Below are positions 10,135-19,300 of a stretch of DNA of 19,489 nucleotides, piece by piece (position 1 is the first letter of the stretch; each line of letters starts with the position of its first letter). Source of the stretch: a virus (taxonomy: Duplodnaviria; Heunggongvirae; Uroviricota; Caudoviricetes); IMG/VR virus record IMGVR_UViG_2609459850_000001; one strand, given 5' to 3'. The position numbers were made by a program, and so were the translations under genes. The notes under the pieces are model-generated. The model was given only the letters and a program-made list of their open reading frames with translations, ran no database searches and had not been told where the DNA came from.

Positions 10135-10154
10135 CAGGACGATACTCATCATTT

Positions 10155-10178
10155 GCCCCGGTTATGCGGGGCTTTTTT
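10155..10178 (+). terminator. intrinsic terminator-like hairpin after V (GCCCCG-GTTATG-CGGGGC + T6)
   Basis: 6-bp GC stem followed by TTTTTT, 21 nt after the V stop and immediately before the G RBS. Confidence 0.5.
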
Positions 10179-10194
10179 GCAGGTGGAGAACATG

Positions 10195-10581
10195 ATGTTT
10201 CTGAAACAGGACACGTTTAATTATGAAAAACAGTCCGTGGTGCTCAGTGAGCTGTCCGGGCTGCAGAGAATTGAATATCTGACGTTTGTTCAGCAGCGAA
10301 CGGCAAAGTTTGATGCCGGGGAGGGAGAACTGCCGGAGGCTGAACGACAGATTGCTTTTCTGCGGATGGGGATGGATATCAATGCCTGGCTGGTTTCCCG
10401 CTCACTGTGGAATGCGGATCAGTCTAAGGATGTAGAGACGCTTTGCGCATCCGTTATTACAACATGGTCGTATGATGCCCTGGGTGCGGGGGCGGAGATG
10501 GTTCTGTCGCTGAGCGGTATGGGGGCCATTGATAATGCCGTGGATGATGAGCATGAGGCGCTGACGCCGGAAAAGTCCTGA
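10195..10581 (+). CDS. G: tail assembly chaperone G
   Basis: The N-terminus MFLKQDTFNYEKQSVVLSELSGLQRIEYL matches lambda gpG (MFLKTESFEH…LSELSALQRIEHL). GGAGA lies 5 nt upstream of the ATG at 10195. The track's 10153 start falls inside the terminator. Confidence 0.85.
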   Translation: MFLKQDTFNYEKQSVVLSELSGLQRIEYLTFVQQRTAKFDAGEGELPEAERQIAFLRMGMDINAWLVSRSLWNADQSKDVETLCASVITTWSYDALGAGAEMVLSLSGMGAIDNAVDDEHEALTPEKS

Positions 10582-10919
10582 CGCGGGAAATGCAGTTTGT
10601 CATGCGGCTTGCCCGGGAGTTCCGGCGGGCAGACTGGCGGCGGATGCTGTCGGAAATGTCGGCCACTGAGCTTGGTGAGTGGGGCGATTATTTCCGGATG
10701 CAGAGCTTCAGTGATGTGTGGATGGATGCGCAGTTTGCCTCGCTGAAGGCATTGATCGTGAGAATGGTGTCCGGCAGCAGTGATGCTGCGGTGGCTGATT
10801 TCAGCCTTTTACCGGAAGAGAACGGGATACCGGAGCGAACGGACGAAGAACTGATGCATCTTGGGGAAGGTATTTCCGGAGGTGTGCGTTATGGACCAGA
10901 TAGCCAACCTGGTCATTGA
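10195..10919 (+). CDS. GT: tail assembly chaperone G-T, predicted -1 programmed frameshift product (shift around 10569-10575)
   Basis: The -1 frame is open from 10557 to the stop at 10917-10919 and overlaps the last 8 codons of G. The heptamer G GAA AAG (10569-10575) is one nucleotide different from the lambda site G GGA AAG. Gene order G-T-H as in lambda. Confidence 0.65.
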
Positions 10920-13900
10920 TTTGGGGATTGATGCGGCAGAGTTTAAAAATGAAATTCCCCGTATCAAAAACCTTCTGAATGGTGCAGCCAGCGATGCAGA
11001 ACGGTCTTCTGCCCGTATGCAGCGTTTTATGGAGCGTCAGACTCAGGCCGCCCGGCAGACAACGCAGGCAGCTTCTTCGGCTGCAACAGCCGCATCCGTC
11101 CATGCGCAGACGGTGGAGAAGAACGCACAGGCTCATGAACGCATGGCCCGCGAGGTGGAGAAAACCCGCCAGCGCATGGAGGCACTGAGCCAGAAAATGC
11201 GCGAGGAACAGGCGCAGGCCATGGCTCTGGCGGAGGCTCAGGATAAAGCGGCTGCTGCGTTTTATCGTCAGATTGACAGTGTGAAACAGGCCAGTGCGGG
11301 GCTGCAGGAATTACAGCGTATTCAGCAGCAGATCCGACAGGCCAGAAACAGTGGCGGGATTGGTCAGCAGGATTATCTGGCGCTGATTTCTGAGGTTACT
11401 GCGAAAACCCGTGTTCTTACACAGGCTGAGGAAGAGGCTACCCGACAGAAAGTGGCGTTTATCCGTCAGCTTAAAGAGCAGGCAACCCGCCTGAATCTTT
11501 CATCTTCTGAGTTGCTTCGTGCTAAGGCAGCCCAGCTGGGGGTAAGCAGTGCTGCAGAAGTGTATATCCGCAAAATGGAGCAGGCAGGAAAAGCCACGCA
11601 TTCGCTGGGTCTGAAAAGTGCAGCAGCCCGCCAGGAGATAGGCGTTCTGATAGGTGAACTGGCCCGCGGCAATTTAGGAGCGCAGAGGGGATCCGGGATA
11701 ACGCTGGCTAACCGTGCCGGATGGATAGACACACTGATGTCACCGAAAGGCATGATGCTTGGCGGGGTTATTGGCGGTATTGCCGCGGCCGTCTATGGTC
11801 TGGGTAAAGCCTGGTATGACGGTCAGAAGGAGGGGGAAGAATTTAACCGCCAGTTGTCGCTGACGGGGCATTATGCCGGAGTCACTGCCGGGCAGCTGTG
11901 GACGCTCAGTCGTGCTATTTCCGGGAATGGTATCACGCAACATGCTGCAGCCGGTGCGCTGGCTCAGGTGGTGGGGAGTGGTGCATTTCGTGGAAACGAT
12001 ATCGGTATGGTGGCGAGAGCTGCCGCACAGATGGAGCGATCGGTTGGCCAGTCGGTCAGCGATACCATAAATCAGTTTAAGCGGCTGAAGGATGATCCTG
12101 TAAATGCCGCGAAGGCTCTGGACAATGAGCTGCATTTTCTTACTGCCACTCAGCTTGAGCAGATACGCGTCCTTGGGGAGCAGGGGCGGTCCAGTGATGC
12201 TGCACGGATAGCCATGTCTGCACTGGCAGAGGAAACCGGTCGGCGTACTGCGGATATTGATAATAACCTCAATGCGCTTGGCAGTACGCTGAAGTATCTG
12301 TCTGATTTGTGGAGTCGTTTCTGGGATGCGGCCATGAATATTGGTCGTGAAGACTCGCTGGATGAACAGATTGCCGCTTTACAGGAGAAAGTGTCGCGGG
12401 CGAAAAGACTCCCCTGGACGGCATCATCTTCTCAGGTTGAATACGATCAGCAGCGTCTTAACGATCTTCAGGAGAAAAAACGCCAGAAGGATTTGCAGGA
12501 TGCAAAAGAGCAGGCAGAGCGGAATTATCAGGAGCAACAGAAACGCCGTAATGCTGAAAATGCTGCACTGAACCGGATGAATGAAACGGAAGCAGCACGA
12601 CATCAGCGTGAAATTGCGCGTATTAATGCCATGCAGTACGCCGATCAGGCTGTCAGGGATGCGGCGATACAACGTGAAAATGAACGTTACGAGAAAGCCC
12701 TGGCATCCGGTAAGAAAAAAACACGCGAAACCCGTAATGATGAGGCCACCCGGTTATTGCTGCAGTACAGTCAGCAACAGGCACAGGTGGAAGGACAGAT
12801 TGCTGCTGCCAGACAGTCAGCAGGCATTGCCACGGAAAGGATGACAGAAGCGCATAAACAGCTTCTGGCTCTGCAGCAGCGCATCAGCGACCTGGACGGG
12901 AAAAAACTGACGGCAGATGAAAAGAGTGTGCTGGCCCGTAAAGATGAACTGATTCAGGCACTGACGCTGCTGGATGTAAAACAGCAGGAGCTACAGAAAC
13001 AGACGGCACTCAACGAGCTGAAGAAAAAAACAATTCAGCTGACCAGTCAACTGGCTGAAGAAGAGCGCGCTCAGCGTCAGCAACATGACCTGGATATCGC
13101 CACGGTGGGTATGGGTGATCAGCAGCGACAGCGATATCAGGTACAACTGAGTCTTCGCCAGAAATACCAGCAACAGCTGGAGCAGTTGAGGCGAGATAGT
13201 GAGCAGAAAGGGACATATAACACGGATGACTACAGAAAGGCCGAGCAGGCGCTGACGGAGAGCCTGAACCGACAACTGAATGAGAATCGCCGTTACTGGC
13301 AACAGCTTGAAGTTGTGCAGGGTAACTGGAAAAACGGAGTCCTGCGTGCATTTCAGGATTTTACCGTGGATGCAGATAATACGGCAGAAACAGCAGAACA
13401 GGTGTTCTCGTCAGCCTTCAGCAACATGGGAAATGGCCTGGCAACTTTTGTCACTACCGGCAAACTCAATTTCAAATCCTTCACCTCTTCTGTGCTGTCA
13501 GATATGGCGAAAATCCTGGCGCAGGCAACCATGATGAAATCGATAAAAGGGATTGGCAGTGTACTGGGATTTGATCTCAGCAGCCTTTCCCTGAATGCCA
13601 ATGGGGGGATTTATCAGTCTGCTGATTTGAGTCGTTACAGTGGCACGGTGGTTAACCGTCCGACGTTTTTTGCTTTTGCAAAAGGCGCGGGTGTGATGGG
13701 GGAAGCGGGACCTGAAGCCATTCTGCCATTGCGTCGTGGTGCTGACGGTAAGCTGGGGGTTGTGGCGGATATTGGGGGTTCAGGTATGGCGATGTTTTCC
13801 CCGCAGTACAACATCGAGATCAATAACGATGGCACGAACGGGCAGATAGGTCCGGCTGCCCTGAAGGCGGTTTATGACCTCGGGAAAAAAGCGGCAGCGG

Positions 13901-13956
13901 ACTTTATGCAACAGCAGGCCCGTGATGGTGGTCGGTTAAGTGGAGCATATCGGTAA
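10891..13956 (+). CDS. H: tail tape measure protein H
   Basis: 1021 aa from the ATG at 10891 with GGAGG 8 nt upstream. N-terminus MDQIANLVIDLGIDAAEF resembles lambda H (MAEPVGDLVVDLSLDAARF), and the C-terminus NNDGTNGQIGPAALKAVYD...DGG matches the lambda H C-terminus. Long central coiled-coil-like Q/E/R/K-rich region. Confidence 0.9.
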   Translation: MDQIANLVIDLGIDAAEFKNEIPRIKNLLNGAASDAERSSARMQRFMERQTQAARQTTQAASSAATAASVHAQTVEKNAQAHERMAREVEKTRQRMEALSQKMREEQAQAMALAEAQDKAAAAFYRQIDSVKQASAGLQELQRIQQQIRQARNSGGIGQQDYLALISEVTAKTRVLTQAEEEATRQKVAFIRQLKEQATRLNLSSSELLRAKAAQLGVSSAAEVYIRKMEQAGKATHSLGLKSAAARQEIGVLIGELARGNLGAQRGSGITLANRAGWIDTLMSPKGMMLGGVIGGIAAAVYGLGKAWYDGQKEGEEFNRQLSLTGHYAGVTAGQLWTLSRAISGNGITQHAAAGALAQVVGSGAFRGNDIGMVARAAAQMERSVGQSVSDTINQFKRLKDDPVNAAKALDNELHFLTATQLEQIRVLGEQGRSSDAARIAMSALAEETGRRTADIDNNLNALGSTLKYLSDLWSRFWDAAMNIGREDSLDEQIAALQEKVSRAKRLPWTASSSQVEYDQQRLNDLQEKKRQKDLQDAKEQAERNYQEQQKRRNAENAALNRMNETEAARHQREIARINAMQYADQAVRDAAIQRENERYEKALASGKKKTRETRNDEATRLLLQYSQQQAQVEGQIAAARQSAGIATERMTEAHKQLLALQQRISDLDGKKLTADEKSVLARKDELIQALTLLDVKQQELQKQTALNELKKKTIQLTSQLAEEERAQRQQHDLDIATVGMGDQQRQRYQVQLSLRQKYQQQLEQLRRDSEQKGTYNTDDYRKAEQALTESLNRQLNENRRYWQQLEVVQGNWKNGVLRAFQDFTVDADNTAETAEQVFSSAFSNMGNGLATFVTTGKLNFKSFTSSVLSDMAKILAQATMMKSIKGIGSVLGFDLSSLSLNANGGIYQSADLSRYSGTVVNRPTFFAFAKGAGVMGEAGPEAILPLRRGADGKLGVVADIGGSGMAMFSPQYNIEINNDGTNGQIGPAALKAVYDLGKKAAADFMQQQARDGGRLSGAYR

Positions 13957-14285
13957 TGGAGACGTTTCACTGGAAAGTGCGCCCGGATATGAATGTGGTA
14001 TCAGAGCCGAAAGTGGTGACAGTGAAGCTGGGCGATGGTTATGAACAGCGTCGTGCGGCGGGACTGAATAACCAGTTGTCGACTTACAGCGTGACGATAC
14101 GTGTTCGTAAATGTGAACACCCATCTTTAAAAGCCTTTCTGGAACGGCACGGTGGCGTCCGTGCATTTCAGTGGACGCCACCTTATGACTGGAAACCGAT
14201 CAGGGTGGTTTGTCGTAAATGGTCGGCAAGCGTGGGGGCGCTGTGGGTAACCATAACGGCAGATTTTGAACAGGTCGTGGCATAG
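13956..14285 (+). CDS. M: minor tail protein M
   Basis: 109 aa, the same length as lambda gpM, with near-identical motifs (METF.WKV.P, GDGY.QR, KWS). The start overlaps the H stop (TAATG). Confidence 0.95.
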   Translation: METFHWKVRPDMNVVSEPKVVTVKLGDGYEQRRAAGLNNQLSTYSVTIRVRKCEHPSLKAFLERHGGVRAFQWTPPYDWKPIRVVCRKWSASVGALWVTITADFEQVVA

Positions 14286-14294
14286 GAGGCTCTG

Positions 14295-14993
14295 ATGCAG
14301 GATATTCCACAGGAAACACATCATGAGACGACACGCCTCACTCAGTCAGCCCAGGTGGTGCTCTGGGAAATCGATCTGACAGAGGTCGGTGGTGAACGTT
14401 ATTTTTTCTGTAATGAGCAGAACGAAAAAGGTGAGCCGGTTATCTGGCAGGGGCGGCAGTATCAGGTATACCCCATTCAGGGGACGGGATTTGAACTGAA
14501 CGGCAAGGGCAGTGCTGCCCGTCCGACACTGACGGTTTCTAACCTGCACGGCATGGTCACCGGGATGGCGGAAGACCTGCAGAGTCTGGTCGGAGGAATG
14601 GTGGTCCGGCGTAAGGTTTACGCCCGTTTTCTGGATGCGGTGAACTTCGTCAACGGAAACAGTGACGCCGATCCGGAGCAGGAGGTGATCAGCCGCTGGC
14701 GCATCGAGCAGTGCAGCGAACTGAGCGCGGTGAGTGCCTCTTTTGTACTGTCCACGCCGACGGAAACGGACGGTGCCGTTTTTCCGGGACGTATCATGCT
14801 GGCCAACACCTGCACCTGGACCTATCGCGGTGATGAGTGCGGTTATCACGGTCCGGCGGTCGCGGATGAATATGATCAGCCGACGTCCGATATCACGAAG
14901 GATAAATGCAGCAAATGCCTGAGCGGCTGTAAGTTTCGCAATAACGTCGGCAACTTTGGCGGCTTCCTTTCCATTAACAAACTTTCGCAGTGA
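14295..14993 (+). CDS. L: minor tail protein L
   Basis: 232 aa, the same length as lambda gpL, and near-identical over long stretches (SVVLWEIDLTEVGGERYFFCNEQNEKGEP, CTWTYRGDECGY, KCSKCLSGCKFRNNVGNFGGF). AGGAGG RBS. Confidence 0.95.
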   Translation: MQDIPQETHHETTRLTQSAQVVLWEIDLTEVGGERYFFCNEQNEKGEPVIWQGRQYQVYPIQGTGFELNGKGSAARPTLTVSNLHGMVTGMAEDLQSLVGGMVVRRKVYARFLDAVNFVNGNSDADPEQEVISRWRIEQCSELSAVSASFVLSTPTETDGAVFPGRIMLANTCTWTYRGDECGYHGPAVADEYDQPTSDITKDKCSKCLSGCKFRNNVGNFGGFLSINKLSQ

Positions 14994-14998
14994 ATCCC

Positions 14999-15742
14999 AT
15001 GACAGAGACAGAATCAGCGATTCTGGCGCACGCCCGGCGATGTGCGCCAGCGGAGTCGTGCGGCTTCGTGGTGAGAACACCGGAGGGGGAAAGATATTTT
15101 CCCTGCGTGAATATCTCCGGTGAGCCGGAGGAGTATTTCCGGATGTCGCCGGAGGACTGGCTGCGGGCAGAGATGCAGGGTGAGATTGTGGCGCTGGTCC
15201 ACAGCCACCCCGGTGGTCTGCCCTGGCTGAGTGAGACCGACCGGCGGCTGCAGGTGCAGAGTGATTTGCCGTGGTGGCTGGTTTGCCGGGGGGCGATTCA
15301 CAAGTTCCGCTGTGTGCCACATCTTTCCGGGCGGCGCTTTGAGCACGGGGTGACGGACTGTTACACGCTGTTCCGGGATGCTTACCATCTGGCGGGGATT
15401 GAGATGCCGGATTTTCATCGCGAGGATGACTGGTGGCGTAACGGTCAGAATCTCTATCTGGATAATCTGGAGGCCACAGGGCTGTATCAGGTGCCGTTGT
15501 CAGCGGCGCAGCCGGGCGATGTGCTGCTGTGCTGTTTTGGTTCATCGGTGCCGAATCATGCCGCCATTTACTGTGGTGACGGCGAGCTGCTGCACCATAT
15601 TCCTGAACAACTGAGCAAACGAGAGAGGTATACCGACAAATGGCAGCGACGCACACACTCCCTCTGGCGTCACCGGGCATGGCACGCATCTGCCTTTACG
15701 GGGATTTACAACGATTTGGCCGCCGCATCGACCTTCGAGTGA
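14999..15742 (+). CDS. K: tail assembly protein K (JAMM/MPN metalloprotease-like + NlpC/P60-like domains)
   Basis: The JAMM signature H-S-H-x7-S-x2-D (HSHPGGLPWLSETD) is present in the sequence, and a Cys (VTDCYTLF) / His pair sits in the C-terminal half. Start set at the first ATG (14999); a GTG at 14990 overlaps the L stop. The 3' end overlaps I by 103 nt in another frame. Confidence 0.85.
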   Translation: MTETESAILAHARRCAPAESCGFVVRTPEGERYFPCVNISGEPEEYFRMSPEDWLRAEMQGEIVALVHSHPGGLPWLSETDRRLQVQSDLPWWLVCRGAIHKFRCVPHLSGRRFEHGVTDCYTLFRDAYHLAGIEMPDFHREDDWWRNGQNLYLDNLEATGLYQVPLSAAQPGDVLLCCFGSSVPNHAAIYCGDGELLHHIPEQLSKRERYTDKWQRRTHSLWRHRAWHASAFTGIYNDLAAASTFE

Positions 15743-16287
15743 AAACGGGGTCCGAAGCCATCCGGGCGCTGGCCATGCAGATCCCGGCGTTTCGTCAGAA
15801 ACTGAGCGACGGCTGGTACCAGGTACGCATTGCCGGGCGTGATGCAGGTGAAACCGAATTGTCTGCCCGTCTTAATGAGCCGCTGGCAAATGGTGCCGTG
15901 ATCCACATCGTGCCGCGTCTGGCGGGAGCTAAAAGTGGCGGTGTGTTTCAGGTGGTGCTGGGGGCGGCGCTGATTGCGGTGGCATGGTGGAACCCTGTGG
16001 GCTGGCTGGGTGCCGCGGCTGTATCGGGCATGTATGCGGCAGGGGCCAGTATGATCCTGGGCGGAGTGGCGCAGATGCTGGCACCGAAAGCCAGGACGCC
16101 CACGGCAGCAAGTACAGATAACGGCAAACAGAACACCTATTTCTCCTCACTGGATAACATGGTTGCCCAGGGCAATGTTCTGCCCGTTCTGTACGGTGAA
16201 ATGCGCGTGGGGTCGCGGGTGGTCTCTCAGGAGATCAGCACGGCAGACGAAGGGGATGGTGGTCAGGTTGTGGTGATTGGTCGCTGA
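15640..16287 (+). CDS. I: tail assembly protein I
   Basis: The N-terminus MAATHTLPLASPGMARICLYGDLQRFGRRIDLRVKTG and the C-terminus TDNGKQNTYFSSLDNMVAQGNVLPVLYGEMRVGSRVVSQEISTADEGDGGQVVVIGR match lambda gpI as I recall it. Confidence 0.9.
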   Translation: MAATHTLPLASPGMARICLYGDLQRFGRRIDLRVKTGSEAIRALAMQIPAFRQKLSDGWYQVRIAGRDAGETELSARLNEPLANGAVIHIVPRLAGAKSGGVFQVVLGAALIAVAWWNPVGWLGAAAVSGMYAAGASMILGGVAQMLAPKARTPTAASTDNGKQNTYFSSLDNMVAQGNVLPVLYGEMRVGSRVVSQEISTADEGDGGQVVVIGR

Positions 16288-16347
16288 TGAAAAACGTTTT
16301 ATGTGAAACCACCTCCGGGCGGTTTTGTCGTTTATGGAGCGTTAGGA

Positions 16348-19300
16348 ATGGGTAAAGGCAGCAGTAAGGGGCATACCCCGCGCGAAGCGAAGGACAACCT
16401 GAAATCATCCCAGATACTGAGCGTGATAGACGCCATCAGTGAAGGGCCGGTTGAAGGTCCGGTGGACGGATTAAAAAGTGTGCTGCTGAACAGTACGCCA
16501 GTGCTGGACAGTGAGGGGAATACCAATATCTCCGGTGTCACGGTGGTGTTCCGGGCAGGTGAGCAGGAGCAGTCACCGCCGGAGGGATTTGAATCCTCCG
16601 GCTCCGAGACGGTGCTGGGTACGGAAGTGAAATACGACACGCCGATCACCCGCGCCATCACGTCGGCAAACATCGACCGACTGCGCTTTACCTTCGGTGT
16701 GCAGGCACTGGTGGAAACCACCTCAAAGGGGGACCGGAATCCGTCGGAAGTTCGCCTGCTGGTTCAGATACAGCGTAATGGTGGCTGGGTGACGGAAAAA
16801 GACATTACCATTAAGGGCAAAACCACCTCGCAGTATCTGGCCTCGGTGGTGGTGGATAACCTGCCGCCGCGCCCGTTTAATATCCGGATGCGCAGAATGA
16901 CGCCGGACAGCACCACAGACCAGCTGCAGAACAAAACGCTCTGGTCGTCATACACCGAAATCATCGATGTGAAACAGTGCTACCCGAACACGGCACTGGT
17001 CGGCGTGCAGGTGGATTCGGAGCAGTTCGGCAGCCAGCAGGTGAGCCGTAATTATCATCTGCGCGGGCGTATTCTGCAGGTGCCGTCGAATTATAACCCG
17101 CAGACGCGGCAATACAGCGGTATCTGGGACGGAACGTTTAAACCGGCATACAGCAACAACATGGCCTGGTGTCTGTGGGATATGCTGACCCATCCGCGCT
17201 ACGGCATGGGGAAACGTCTTGGTGCGGCGGATGTGGATAAATGGGCGCTGTATGTCATCGGCCAGAATTGCGACCAGTCGGTGCCGGATGGCTTTGGCGG
17301 CACGGAGCCGCGTATTACCTGTAATGCGTACCTGACCACGCAGCGCAAGGCGTGGGATGTGCTCAGTGATTTCTGCTCGGCGATGCGCTGTATGCCGGTA
17401 TGGAACGGGCAGACGCTGACGTTTGTGCAGGACCGGCCATCGGATAAGGTGTGGACCTATAACCGCAGTAATGTGGTGATGCCGGATGATGGCGCGCCGT
17501 TCCGCTACAGCTTCAGCGCCCTGAAAGACCGCCATAATGCCGTTGAGGTGAACTGGATTGACCCGAACAACGGCTGGGAGACGGCGACAGAGCTTGTGGA
17601 GGATACGCAGGCCATTGCCCGTTACGGTCGTAACGTCACGAAGATGGATGCTTTTGGCTGTACCAGCCGGGGGCAGGCACACCGCGCCGGGCTGTGGCTG
17701 ATTAAAACAGAACTGCTGGAAACGCAGACCGTGGACTTCAGCGTGGGCGCAGAAGGGCTTCGCCATGTGCCGGGCGATGTCATTGAAATCTGTGATGATG
17801 ACTATGCCGGTATCAGCACCGGCGGGCGCGTGCTGGCGGTAAACAGCCAGACCCGGACGCTGACGCTCGACCGTGAAATCACGCTGCCATCCTCCGGCAC
17901 CACGCTGATAAGCCTGGTTGACGGTGAGGGTAATCCGGTCAGCGTGGAGGTCCAGTCCGTCACCGACGGCGTGAAGGTGAAAGTGAGCCGTGTTCCTGAC
18001 GGCGTTGCTGAATACAGCGTGTGGGGGCTGAAGTTGCCGACGTTGCGCCAGCGCCTGTTCCGCTGCGTGAGTATCCGTGAGAACGACGACGGCACGTATG
18101 CCATCACTGCCGTGCAGCATGTACCGGAGAAAGAGGCCATCGTGGATAACGGGGCGCACTTTGACGGCGACCAGAGCGGCACGGTGAATGGTGTCACTCC
18201 GCCAGCAGTGCAACACCTGACCGCAGAAGTCACCGCAGACAGCGGGGAATACCAGGTGCTGGCGCGCTGGGATACGCCGAAGGTGGTGAAGGGCGTGAGC
18301 TTCCTGCTTCGCCTGACCGTGGCAGCGGATGACGGCAGTGAGCGGCTGGTCAGCACGGCCCGGACGACGGAAACCACATACCGCTTCACGCAACTGGCGC
18401 TGGGGCGTTACATGCTGACGGTCCGGGCGGTAAATGCGTGGGGGCTGCAGGGCGATCCGGCATCGGTATCGTTCCGGATTGCCGCACCGGCAGCGCCGTC
18501 TCGGATTGAGCTGACACCGGGCTATTTTCAGATAACCGCCACGTCACATCTTGCGGTTTATGACCCGACGGTACAGTTTGAGTTCTGGTTCTCGGAAAAA
18601 CGGATTACCGATATCAGGCAGGTTGAAACCACAGCCCGCTATCTTGGCACGGCGCTGTACTGGATAGCTGCCAGTATCAATATCAGGCCGGGCCATGATT
18701 ATTATTTTTACGTTCGCAGTGTGAACACCGTTGGCAAATCGGCATTCGTGGAGGCTGTTGGTCGGGCGAGCGATGATGCGGAAGGTTACCTGGATTTTTT
18801 CAAAGGCCAGATAACCGAATTCCATCTCGGCAAGGAGCTGCTGGAAAAAGTCGAGCTGACGGAGGATAACGCCAGCAAACTGGAGGAGTTTTCGAAAGAG
18901 TGGAAGGACGCCAGTGATAAGTGGAATGCCATGTGGGGCGTCAAAATTGAGCAGACCAAAGACGGCAAACATTATGTCGCGGGTATTGGCCTCAGCATGG
19001 AGGACACGGAGGAAGGCAAACTGAGCCAGTTCCTGGTTGCCGCTAACCGTATCGCGTTTATTGATCCGTCTAATGGCAACACAAGACCAATGTTTGTTGG
19101 TCAGGGCGATCAGATATTCATGAACGACGTGTTCCTGAAACGCCTGACGGCTCCGACCATTACCAGCGGCGGTAATCCTCCGGCATTTTCCCTGACACCG
19201 GATGGGCGGCTGACGGCGAAAAATGCCGATATCAGCGGTAACGTGAATGCGAACTCCGGGACGCTCAACAACGTCACGATTAACGAGAACTGTCGGGTTC

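Follow-up and report, generated by a model that had tools for sequence, protein, structure and literature searches.

A 247-residue gene K in a lambda-like late-gene region and a probable missing base in the lambda reference entry

Lambda-like phages carry a tail gene K between genes L and I, and the question raised by the viral record IMGVR_UViG_2609459850_000001 is where this gene begins. The record is 19,489 nt long (the window, by which we mean this whole stretch) and holds the late-gene region of a lambda-like phage or prophage, from the terminase through the start of gene J. On the plus strand an open reading frame (ORF) occupies positions 14990-15742, with 250 codons counted from a GTG, an upstream in-frame stop at 14975 and a TGA at 15740-15742. 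An earlier sequence-only reading correctly described this frame as open for 250 codons from a GTG overlapping the L stop, with its first ATG at 14999, and proposed that it is a K homolog extended 5' relative to the classical lambda K of 199 amino acids. The length that it gave for lambda agrees with the reference entry (NC_001416, 14276..14875; NP_040598; UniProt TIPK_LAMBD). We find that the ORF is very probably an intact lambda-type K gene of an mEp460-type phage or prophage, encoding 247 amino acids that include a JAB and an NlpC/P60 peptidase domain. The "extension" is no property of the window; the window gene is the normal one and the reference entry is deviant.

Across positions 14200-16400 the window shares 98.7% identity with Escherichia phage mEp460_ev081 and 96-97% with mEp460, Ayreon and cdtI, and the identity of the region to mEp460 isolates ranges from 96.8 to 98.7%. 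Around the ORF Pfam finds Phage_min_tail (gene M), Phage_tail_L (gene L) and Lambda_tail_I (gene I), in the same order as in annotated relatives, so the ORF occupies the gene K position in the M-L-K-I-J cluster. The PHROG family phrog_30 matches window K with E = 2e-163. A protein identical over 247 amino acids (P0006, from an E. coli prophage) has 2460 members, occurs on at least 1000 contigs, and is named "C40 family peptidase" or "phage tail protein". Two numberings of K are in use, one for the 250 codons from the GTG and one for the 247 from the ATG, such that E22 and M52 of the former are E19 and M49 of the latter.

Based on conservation, we read the start of K as ATG 14999, giving 247 amino acids. 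Of 129 related loci, 127 have retained the ATG and 109 read …GCAGTAAATCCCATG. The annotated K proteins of RefSeq mEp460, phage 434 (OL657226) and Lambda PV340536 all have 247 amino acids from this ATG, and in alignments the N-termini of distant homologues fall no more than a few residues from Met1. No Shine-Dalgarno sequence was found upstream of either GTG 14990 or ATG 14999, and since the ATG follows the L stop by only 5 nt, translation of K is probably coupled to that of L. Three homologues with 35-48% identity keep the M-L-K-I order, and in these the start of K and the stop of L share 1-4 nt, so coupling to L looks conserved as the way in which K is started. Of the long form proposed earlier, the real gene with its N-terminal JAB part stands, and the 250 codons turn out to be the maximal ORF rather than the protein.

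Both of the domains that the earlier reading suggested searching for are found by profile search. Pfam Prok-JAB (PF14464) scores 53.8 bits (cut-off 25) on residues 7-101, spanning profile positions 4-103 of 114, and Pfam NLPC_P60 (PF00877) scores 49.1 bits (cut-off 23) on residues 114-227, spanning profile positions 1-105 of 105; both matches are far beyond chance. The exact JAMM signature noted before, HSHPGGLPWLSETD (H-S-H-x7-S-x2-D), is present at residues 71-84 in the 250-residue numbering. The upstream catalytic Glu that was placed at about residue 22-34, and was said to be lost from a short form, proves to be E22 (E19 in the 247-residue numbering), within a conserved P-x-E-x-C-G motif.

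A search of 1.84 billion cluster representatives with K gave 2800 hits with E ≤ 0.001, of which 285 had E ≤ 1e-30, and from this search we aligned 81 homologues with 33-58% identity. In the 247-residue numbering, which we use for the residues in this paragraph and the next, G22, N38, H68, H70, D81, D120, H199 and S206 are invariant in the alignment, while P17, E19, C21, F47, S69, S78, C121, H187 and H200 are at least 90% conserved, as is the P-x-E-x-C-G pattern around E19. The JAMM set is thus complete in K, comprising E19, H68, S69, H70, S78 and D81. The P-A-E-S-C-G of K has its aligned counterpart in PNEACG of 2kks, a JAB protein whose structure is solved (alignment from residue 7, E = 1e-5). 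In AfJAMM the motif is E22/H67/H69/S77/D80, and its Glu holds the catalytic water; the spacing is nearly equal to that of E19/H68/H70/S78/D81 in K, so that E19 of K is the equivalent of E22 of AfJAMM. These features identify the N-terminal domain of K as a JAB/MPN+ zinc metalloprotease with a complete JAMM set and predicted activity. No report of zinc binding or (iso)peptidase activity of K was found in the literature searched.

The predicted structure indicates what the first 48 residues contribute. AlphaFold2 run with the 81-sequence alignment gave a predicted local distance difference test score (pLDDT) of 97 and a predicted template modelling score (pTM) of 0.91 over all 247 residues; with the single K sequence the pLDDT was only 33, and the model that we used is the one from the alignment. 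Residues 1-48 of the model form a helix (3-15) and two strands (21-27 and 30-36). When the model was searched against the PDB with Foldseek, PfJAMM1 (5ld9, and 5lda, in which it is in complex with the ubiquitin-like (Ubl) protein SAMP2) matched with a template modelling (TM) score of 0.65 and a root-mean-square deviation (rmsd) of 2.6-2.7 A, and the JAB protein 2kks with a TM score of 0.56. MepS, LytE, Acd33800 and 7v6s matched with TM scores of 0.6-0.68 and rmsd of 2.6-3.1 A. All of these fold matches rest on the predicted structure of K. The 199-residue form fails the Prok-JAB cut-off of 25, with just 24.2 bits and a match confined to profile positions 63-103 of 114. With its helix and two strands the N-terminus is thus integral to the JAB fold, and judging from the model residues 1-48, which bear the catalytic Glu, belong to the protein and are not an optional extension.

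Why lambda K is then annotated as shorter can be seen in the reference sequence itself. In NC_001416/J02459 a TGA at 14255 closes the K frame, 21 nt ahead of the ATG 14276 that is given as the start. The JAB codons are present upstream in another frame, where an ATG at 14133 opens a 76-codon ORF beginning MTQTESAILAHARRCAPAESCGFVV…. When the site is aligned, the lambda reference reads GGAGGC-TATTTCC, mEp460 reads GGAGGCGTATTTCC, and the window and phage 434 read GGAGGAGTATTTCC. The G missing after lambda 14266 corresponds to window 15132-15133, and its absence throws the first 45 K codons out of frame. The G is present in five lambda or lambda-derived records, namely Lambda PV340536 (an MG1655 lysogen), DE3 of BL21(DE3), Lambda_AGU LC730321, Lambda imm21 and KT232076, all of which read GGAGGCGTATTTCC and encode a K of 247 amino acids. 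In these five the K ATG lies 6 nt past the L stop, and several are still annotated with 199 amino acids. Lambda K is therefore annotated with 199 amino acids because J02459/NC_001416 lacks one G after 14266. The earlier reading had treated the short lambda K as an annotation choice that the window ORF calls into question; however, the upstream codons of the reference are in a different frame, and the 5' extension is only apparent, given that the G-bearing lambda records also encode 247 amino acids.

An exact search of IMG/VR gave no hits to the reference version of the site, against at least 120 for the version with the G, and there were likewise none in JGI metagenomes or in GTDB representative genomes. 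Among the matches listed for complete E. coli genomes (4350 matching records), none is at 100% to the reference version, and the best of those listed are 99.5% identical over 202 nt, not 201, meaning that the extra base is present. The 247-residue lambda K occurs on at least 1000 contigs. In the 10 contigs with a 199-residue call that we inspected (the longest contigs), all have the G or other assembly indels. The 76-residue frameshifted lambda peptide is not in a collection of 15 billion proteins, a weak negative because a gene caller might skip it.

A second indel lies near position 138, where the reference has an extra G (GCGAGGCTT, compared with GCGA-GCTT in LC730321), so two single-base indels, at 138 and at 14266, separate J02459 from resequenced lambda. 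This fits a supplier's sequence note that reportedly lists "138 delG, 14266 insG" for lambda DNA. In the literature searched, we found no paper saying outright that lambda K has a wrong start or that J02459 is short of a base in K. From the sequences compared, the most economical reading is that a base was missed in a GC-rich run of the 1982 sequence. A programmed frameshift in lambda K was considered and rejected, as GGAGGCTATTTCC offers no slippery sequence and the extra G is simply there in the other lambda records.

Two further observations concern database copies of K. In several E. coli chromosome assemblies the first 41 codons of K contain other single-base frameshifts, and L or I is split; these look like homopolymer errors of long-read assemblies and not biology. 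The exact 199-residue lambda K (P0283) appears under names such as 'C40 family peptidase [Staphylococcus aureus]', and a fragment comes from Bacillus paralicheniformis, both of which look like contamination of assemblies with lambda DNA.

The C-terminal half of K contains the NlpC/P60-like Cys and His residues described in the sequence-only reading, and they are conserved. The candidate triad is C124, H190 and H202 in the 250-residue numbering (C121/H187/H199 in the other), and the invariant D120 directly precedes C121. From profile and motif, this domain is an NlpC/P60 cysteine peptidase of predicted activity.

The role of K has been approached mainly through lambda. There, K is needed for tail assembly; mass spectrometry did not detect it in virions, and no tail tip structure resolves it. 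Of the I protein (gpI), only residues 134/135-223 are seen in the lambda tail tip by cryo-electron microscopy, where they form a plug beneath the C-terminus of the tape measure. Iyer et al. 2006 (PMC1779556) described the N-terminus of I as a ThiS/MoaD-like ubiquitin fold with a conserved Gly at its end and K as JAB plus NlpC/P60, noted an I-JAB fusion in some prophages, and predicted that the JAB domain releases the Ubl domain of I. This is the literature proposal of a ubiquitin-like N-terminus that the earlier reading had in mind, and in the window the Lambda_tail_I domain is found at residues 14-97 of I. Five I sequences, down to 28% identity, align with no variation at I90, P92 and G96 of …IVPRLAG…, which is followed by a stretch that is hydrophobic and rich in Gly. 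Window K and I also match PHROG profiles that join genes, one of L+K (544 positions), one of K+I (399) and one of JAB+I (322); these joined families (phrog_30, phrog_28576 and phrog_35166) could be true fusions, like the one that Iyer et al. found in an E. coli prophage, or merged calls from frameshifted assemblies.

Given the adjacency of K and I, the conserved Gly of I and the PHROG families that join K or JAB with I, we rank first the reading that K is probably an assembly-time peptidase whose JAB domain removes the Ubl domain of I. K would be a non-structural assembly enzyme, absent from the virion. Its JAB domain would separate the ubiquitin-like N-terminal domain from the rest of gpI by a cut at the conserved Gly where the beta-grasp ends (…IVPRLAG…), and the C-terminal part of I would then remain as the tail tip plug.

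Ranked second is the idea that the JAB domain of K is mainly a counter-defence deubiquitinase (DUB), stripping Bil-type Ubl tags from the central tail fibre and not processing gpI. Hör et al. made the same speculation for the DUB domains of siphophage tail assembly proteins, and the tail tip initiator on which K acts contains J and is the Bil target. However, a K that bears a JAB domain nearly always adjoins a gene with its own Ubl domain ending in a conserved Gly, fused JAB-I families exist, and the Ubl part of I is not seen in lambda virions. As the main role of the domain we consider it rather unlikely, although a deubiquitinase role is compatible with the processing of gpI and the two are not mutually exclusive.

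Several points weigh against the account of K and its function given above. For no K did we find, in the literature searched, an experiment that demonstrates peptidase activity or cleavage of I. The reference reading at 14266 is repeated in two other records, OR974322 and the unverified OR474059, and only in these; OR974322 agrees with the reference at both 138 and 14266, so it may be a reference-guided consensus. Strictly speaking, the missing G could still be a lesion private to the sequenced stock and not a sequencing error. Variable sites in the first 48 K codons (7/3/16 by codon position) offer weak support, since the loci were retrieved via a fixed 34-mer within those same codons and the count is biased. 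Finally, ATG 14999 has no ribosome-binding site and only the internal ATG 15143 has a GGAGG, 11 nt upstream, so an extra short product from ATG 15143 might be made.

If ATG 15143 served as a start too, or instead, the product would be the 199-residue K, with NlpC/P60 intact and JAB broken. The GGAGG is the sole good Shine-Dalgarno sequence in the 5' part of K, both it and the internal ATG are kept in 87 of 87 close relatives, and gene callers often choose this ATG (P0049, a 199-residue call, has 4936 members). The lambda reference reading, if real, would mean that the sequenced stock lived on the 199-residue product; it has no match in IMG/VR, JGI metagenomes, GTDB or the E. coli matches listed. 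The GGAGG is itself constrained by the codons for G-E-P-E-E, and what the 199-residue form is missing, helix 1, strands 1-2 and the catalytic Glu, belongs to a domain with an otherwise invariant motif. In the homologues of 33-58% identity the column of the internal Met is mostly Ile, so a short isoform is no feature of the family. We regard this internal start as unlikely, and it is quite unlikely that GGAGG-N11-ATG is a working second start such that both an L-coupled, low-level full-length K and a JAB-less 199-residue K are made. If the reference stock truly lacked the G after 14266, its plaques were formed on the short form alone; in that case JAB would be dispensable for tail assembly in the laboratory, and another role, e.g. 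removal of host Ubl tags, would be possible.

It is very improbable that the NlpC/P60 domain serves as a peptidoglycan hydrolase carried in the virion, with which the phage would cross the cell wall when it infects. The best fold matches do include the cell-wall endopeptidases MepS and LytE, and there is a weak match to the NCBIfam model 'putative phage cell wall peptidase', but this match reaches 23.7 bits against a cut-off of 81.9, and the lambda data on virions and tail tips given above place K outside the particle, which makes such a role unlikely.

Initiation at GTG 14990 across the L stop, the 250-residue form of the earlier reading, can scarcely be credited: the GTG is in frame and the first possible start past the stop at 14975, and a GTGA overlap with the L stop would fit translational coupling, but only 5 of the 129 loci have a GTG there compared with 127 that keep the ATG lying 9 nt downstream, lambda, 434 and mEp460 all have GTA in its place and a TAA at the end of L (the GTG is present because window L ends in TGA), and database annotations of K all start at the ATG.

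The features discussed here are collected in Table 1.

Table 1. Coordinates of gene K, its domains and sites, and its neighbours in the 19,489-nt window.
Feature	Position	Strand	Evidence or remark
Gene K, tail tip assembly protein K, 247 amino acids + TGA	14999..15742	+	ATG conservation, identical database protein, RefSeq starts
JAB/MPN+ (JAMM) metalloprotease domain (predicted)	15008..15292	+	Pfam, Foldseek match to PfJAMM1, 2kks alignment
Catalytic Glu codon (predicted), E22 (250-residue) = E19 (247-residue), motif P-A-E-S-C-G	15053..15055	+	Homologue alignment, 2kks, AfJAMM
JAMM signature HSHPGGLPWLSETD (H-S-H-x7-S-x2-D)	15200..15241	+	Regular expression match; residues 71-84, 250-residue numbering
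NlpC/P60 (C40) papain-like peptidase domain (predicted)	15329..15670	+	Pfam, conserved catalytic candidates, Foldseek
Catalytic candidates C124, H190, H202 (250-residue)	15359-15361, 15557-15559, 15593-15595	+	Cys-His-His triad, homologue alignment
GGAGG (15127-15131), then 11 nt on internal ATG 15143 (M52, 250-residue)	15127..15145	+	Classical lambda K start
GTG, earlier-proposed start	14990..14992	+	Overlaps L stop TGA 14991-14993; poorly conserved triplet
Gene L	14295..14993	+	Pfam Phage_tail_L 327 bits; stop TGA 14991-14993, 5 nt before K ATG
Gene I, tail assembly protein, N-terminal ubiquitin-like domain	15640..16287	+	Pfam Lambda_tail_I 83.5 bits, residues 14-97
Dual-coding stretch, K C-terminus and I N-terminus	15640..15742	+	103 nt from ATG 15640; 64 nt from ATG 15679

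The out-of-frame overlap of 103 nt between K and I that was reported earlier is borne out by the I ORF. In 87 close relatives, the variable sites by K codon position number 8/10/14 in the overlap and 40/23/99 elsewhere in K, and the even spread within the overlap is as dual coding predicts. The I start ATG 15640 is kept in all 87 of these relatives, and lambda I also uses the ATG that gives a 103-nt overlap. More distant I homologues begin, when aligned, at M14 (nt 15679), which corresponds to a 64-nt overlap, as in one relative with 48% identity. RefSeq mEp460 and many gene callers use a GTG at 15739, which overlaps the K stop; from this start Lambda_tail_I scores 52.5 bits over positions 26-83, as opposed to 83.5 bits over positions 2-83 from the upstream start. 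The GTG drops the first ~25 positions of the Ubl profile, so this annotation is probably wrong.

Opposite L and K, on the minus strand at window positions 14346-15689, there is an antisense ORF of 447 codons with no Pfam hit, which is most likely spurious, lying opposite GC-rich coding sequence. At window positions 10153-10919 and 10861-13956, two ORFs that precede the tape measure gene (142 and 109 amino acids) have the layout of the lambda G/GT chaperone pair. That pair is made by a programmed -1 frameshift in lambda.

For the window itself little is at stake, as this is a routine and correctly callable lambdoid K. The JAMM motif of lambda K was already listed in 2003, and the literature has covered the domain make-up from 2003-2006 on. 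The 247-residue protein and the JAB plus NlpC/P60 architecture are known and routinely annotated. Nor is the gene new: RefSeq already has the 247-residue form, the identical protein is on at least 1000 contigs, and JAB, NlpC/P60 and the link to Ubl had been brought together by 2006. On whether the JAB domain of K cuts the Ubl domain of gpI, the window gene brings no new handle. The point for curation is that the textbook lambda K (NP_040598/TIPK_LAMBD) is truncated and is missing the catalytic Glu as well as roughly half of the JAB domain. K constructs, structure predictions and JAB mutants designed from the reference entry would have a broken domain.

The closest known system is lambda gpK (TIPK_LAMBD, NP_040598), which has the same place in the M-L-K-I-J cluster. 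As read from PV340536, DE3 or LC730321, lambda K differs from window K at about 10 of 247 residues (about 96% identity), and it clusters under the representative P0011, 96% identical to the window protein. The reference form differs in its length, 199 amino acids compared with 247, and lambda L stops at TAA where window L stops at TGA, which creates the non-conserved GTG in the window. K of mEp460 (gp16, YP_007112090, 'C40 family peptidase', 247 amino acids) has the same start and stop as window K and no substantive difference from it, and P0006 is 100% identical over the 247 residues.

Stand-alone JAMM/MPN+ enzymes cut Ubl proteins from fusions or conjugates after the C-terminal Gly. AfJAMM, PfJAMM1 (5ld9/5lda), the HvJAMM1 desampylase and DSY2949 (2kks) have the JAB fold and the E…HxH…S..D motif in common with K. 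Unlike these enzymes, the JAB domain of K is fused to NlpC/P60 and is encoded in a phage tail operon, and K is no member of the NCBIfam desampylase equivalog (30 bits against a cut-off of 130). With MepS/Spr of E. coli, LytE of B. subtilis and Acd33800 of C. difficile, K has in common the papain-like fold and the Cys-His-His triad. In contrast to them it lacks both a signal peptide and a cell-wall-binding domain and is absent from the virion, and the substrate of its NlpC/P60 domain may be protein rather than peptidoglycan.

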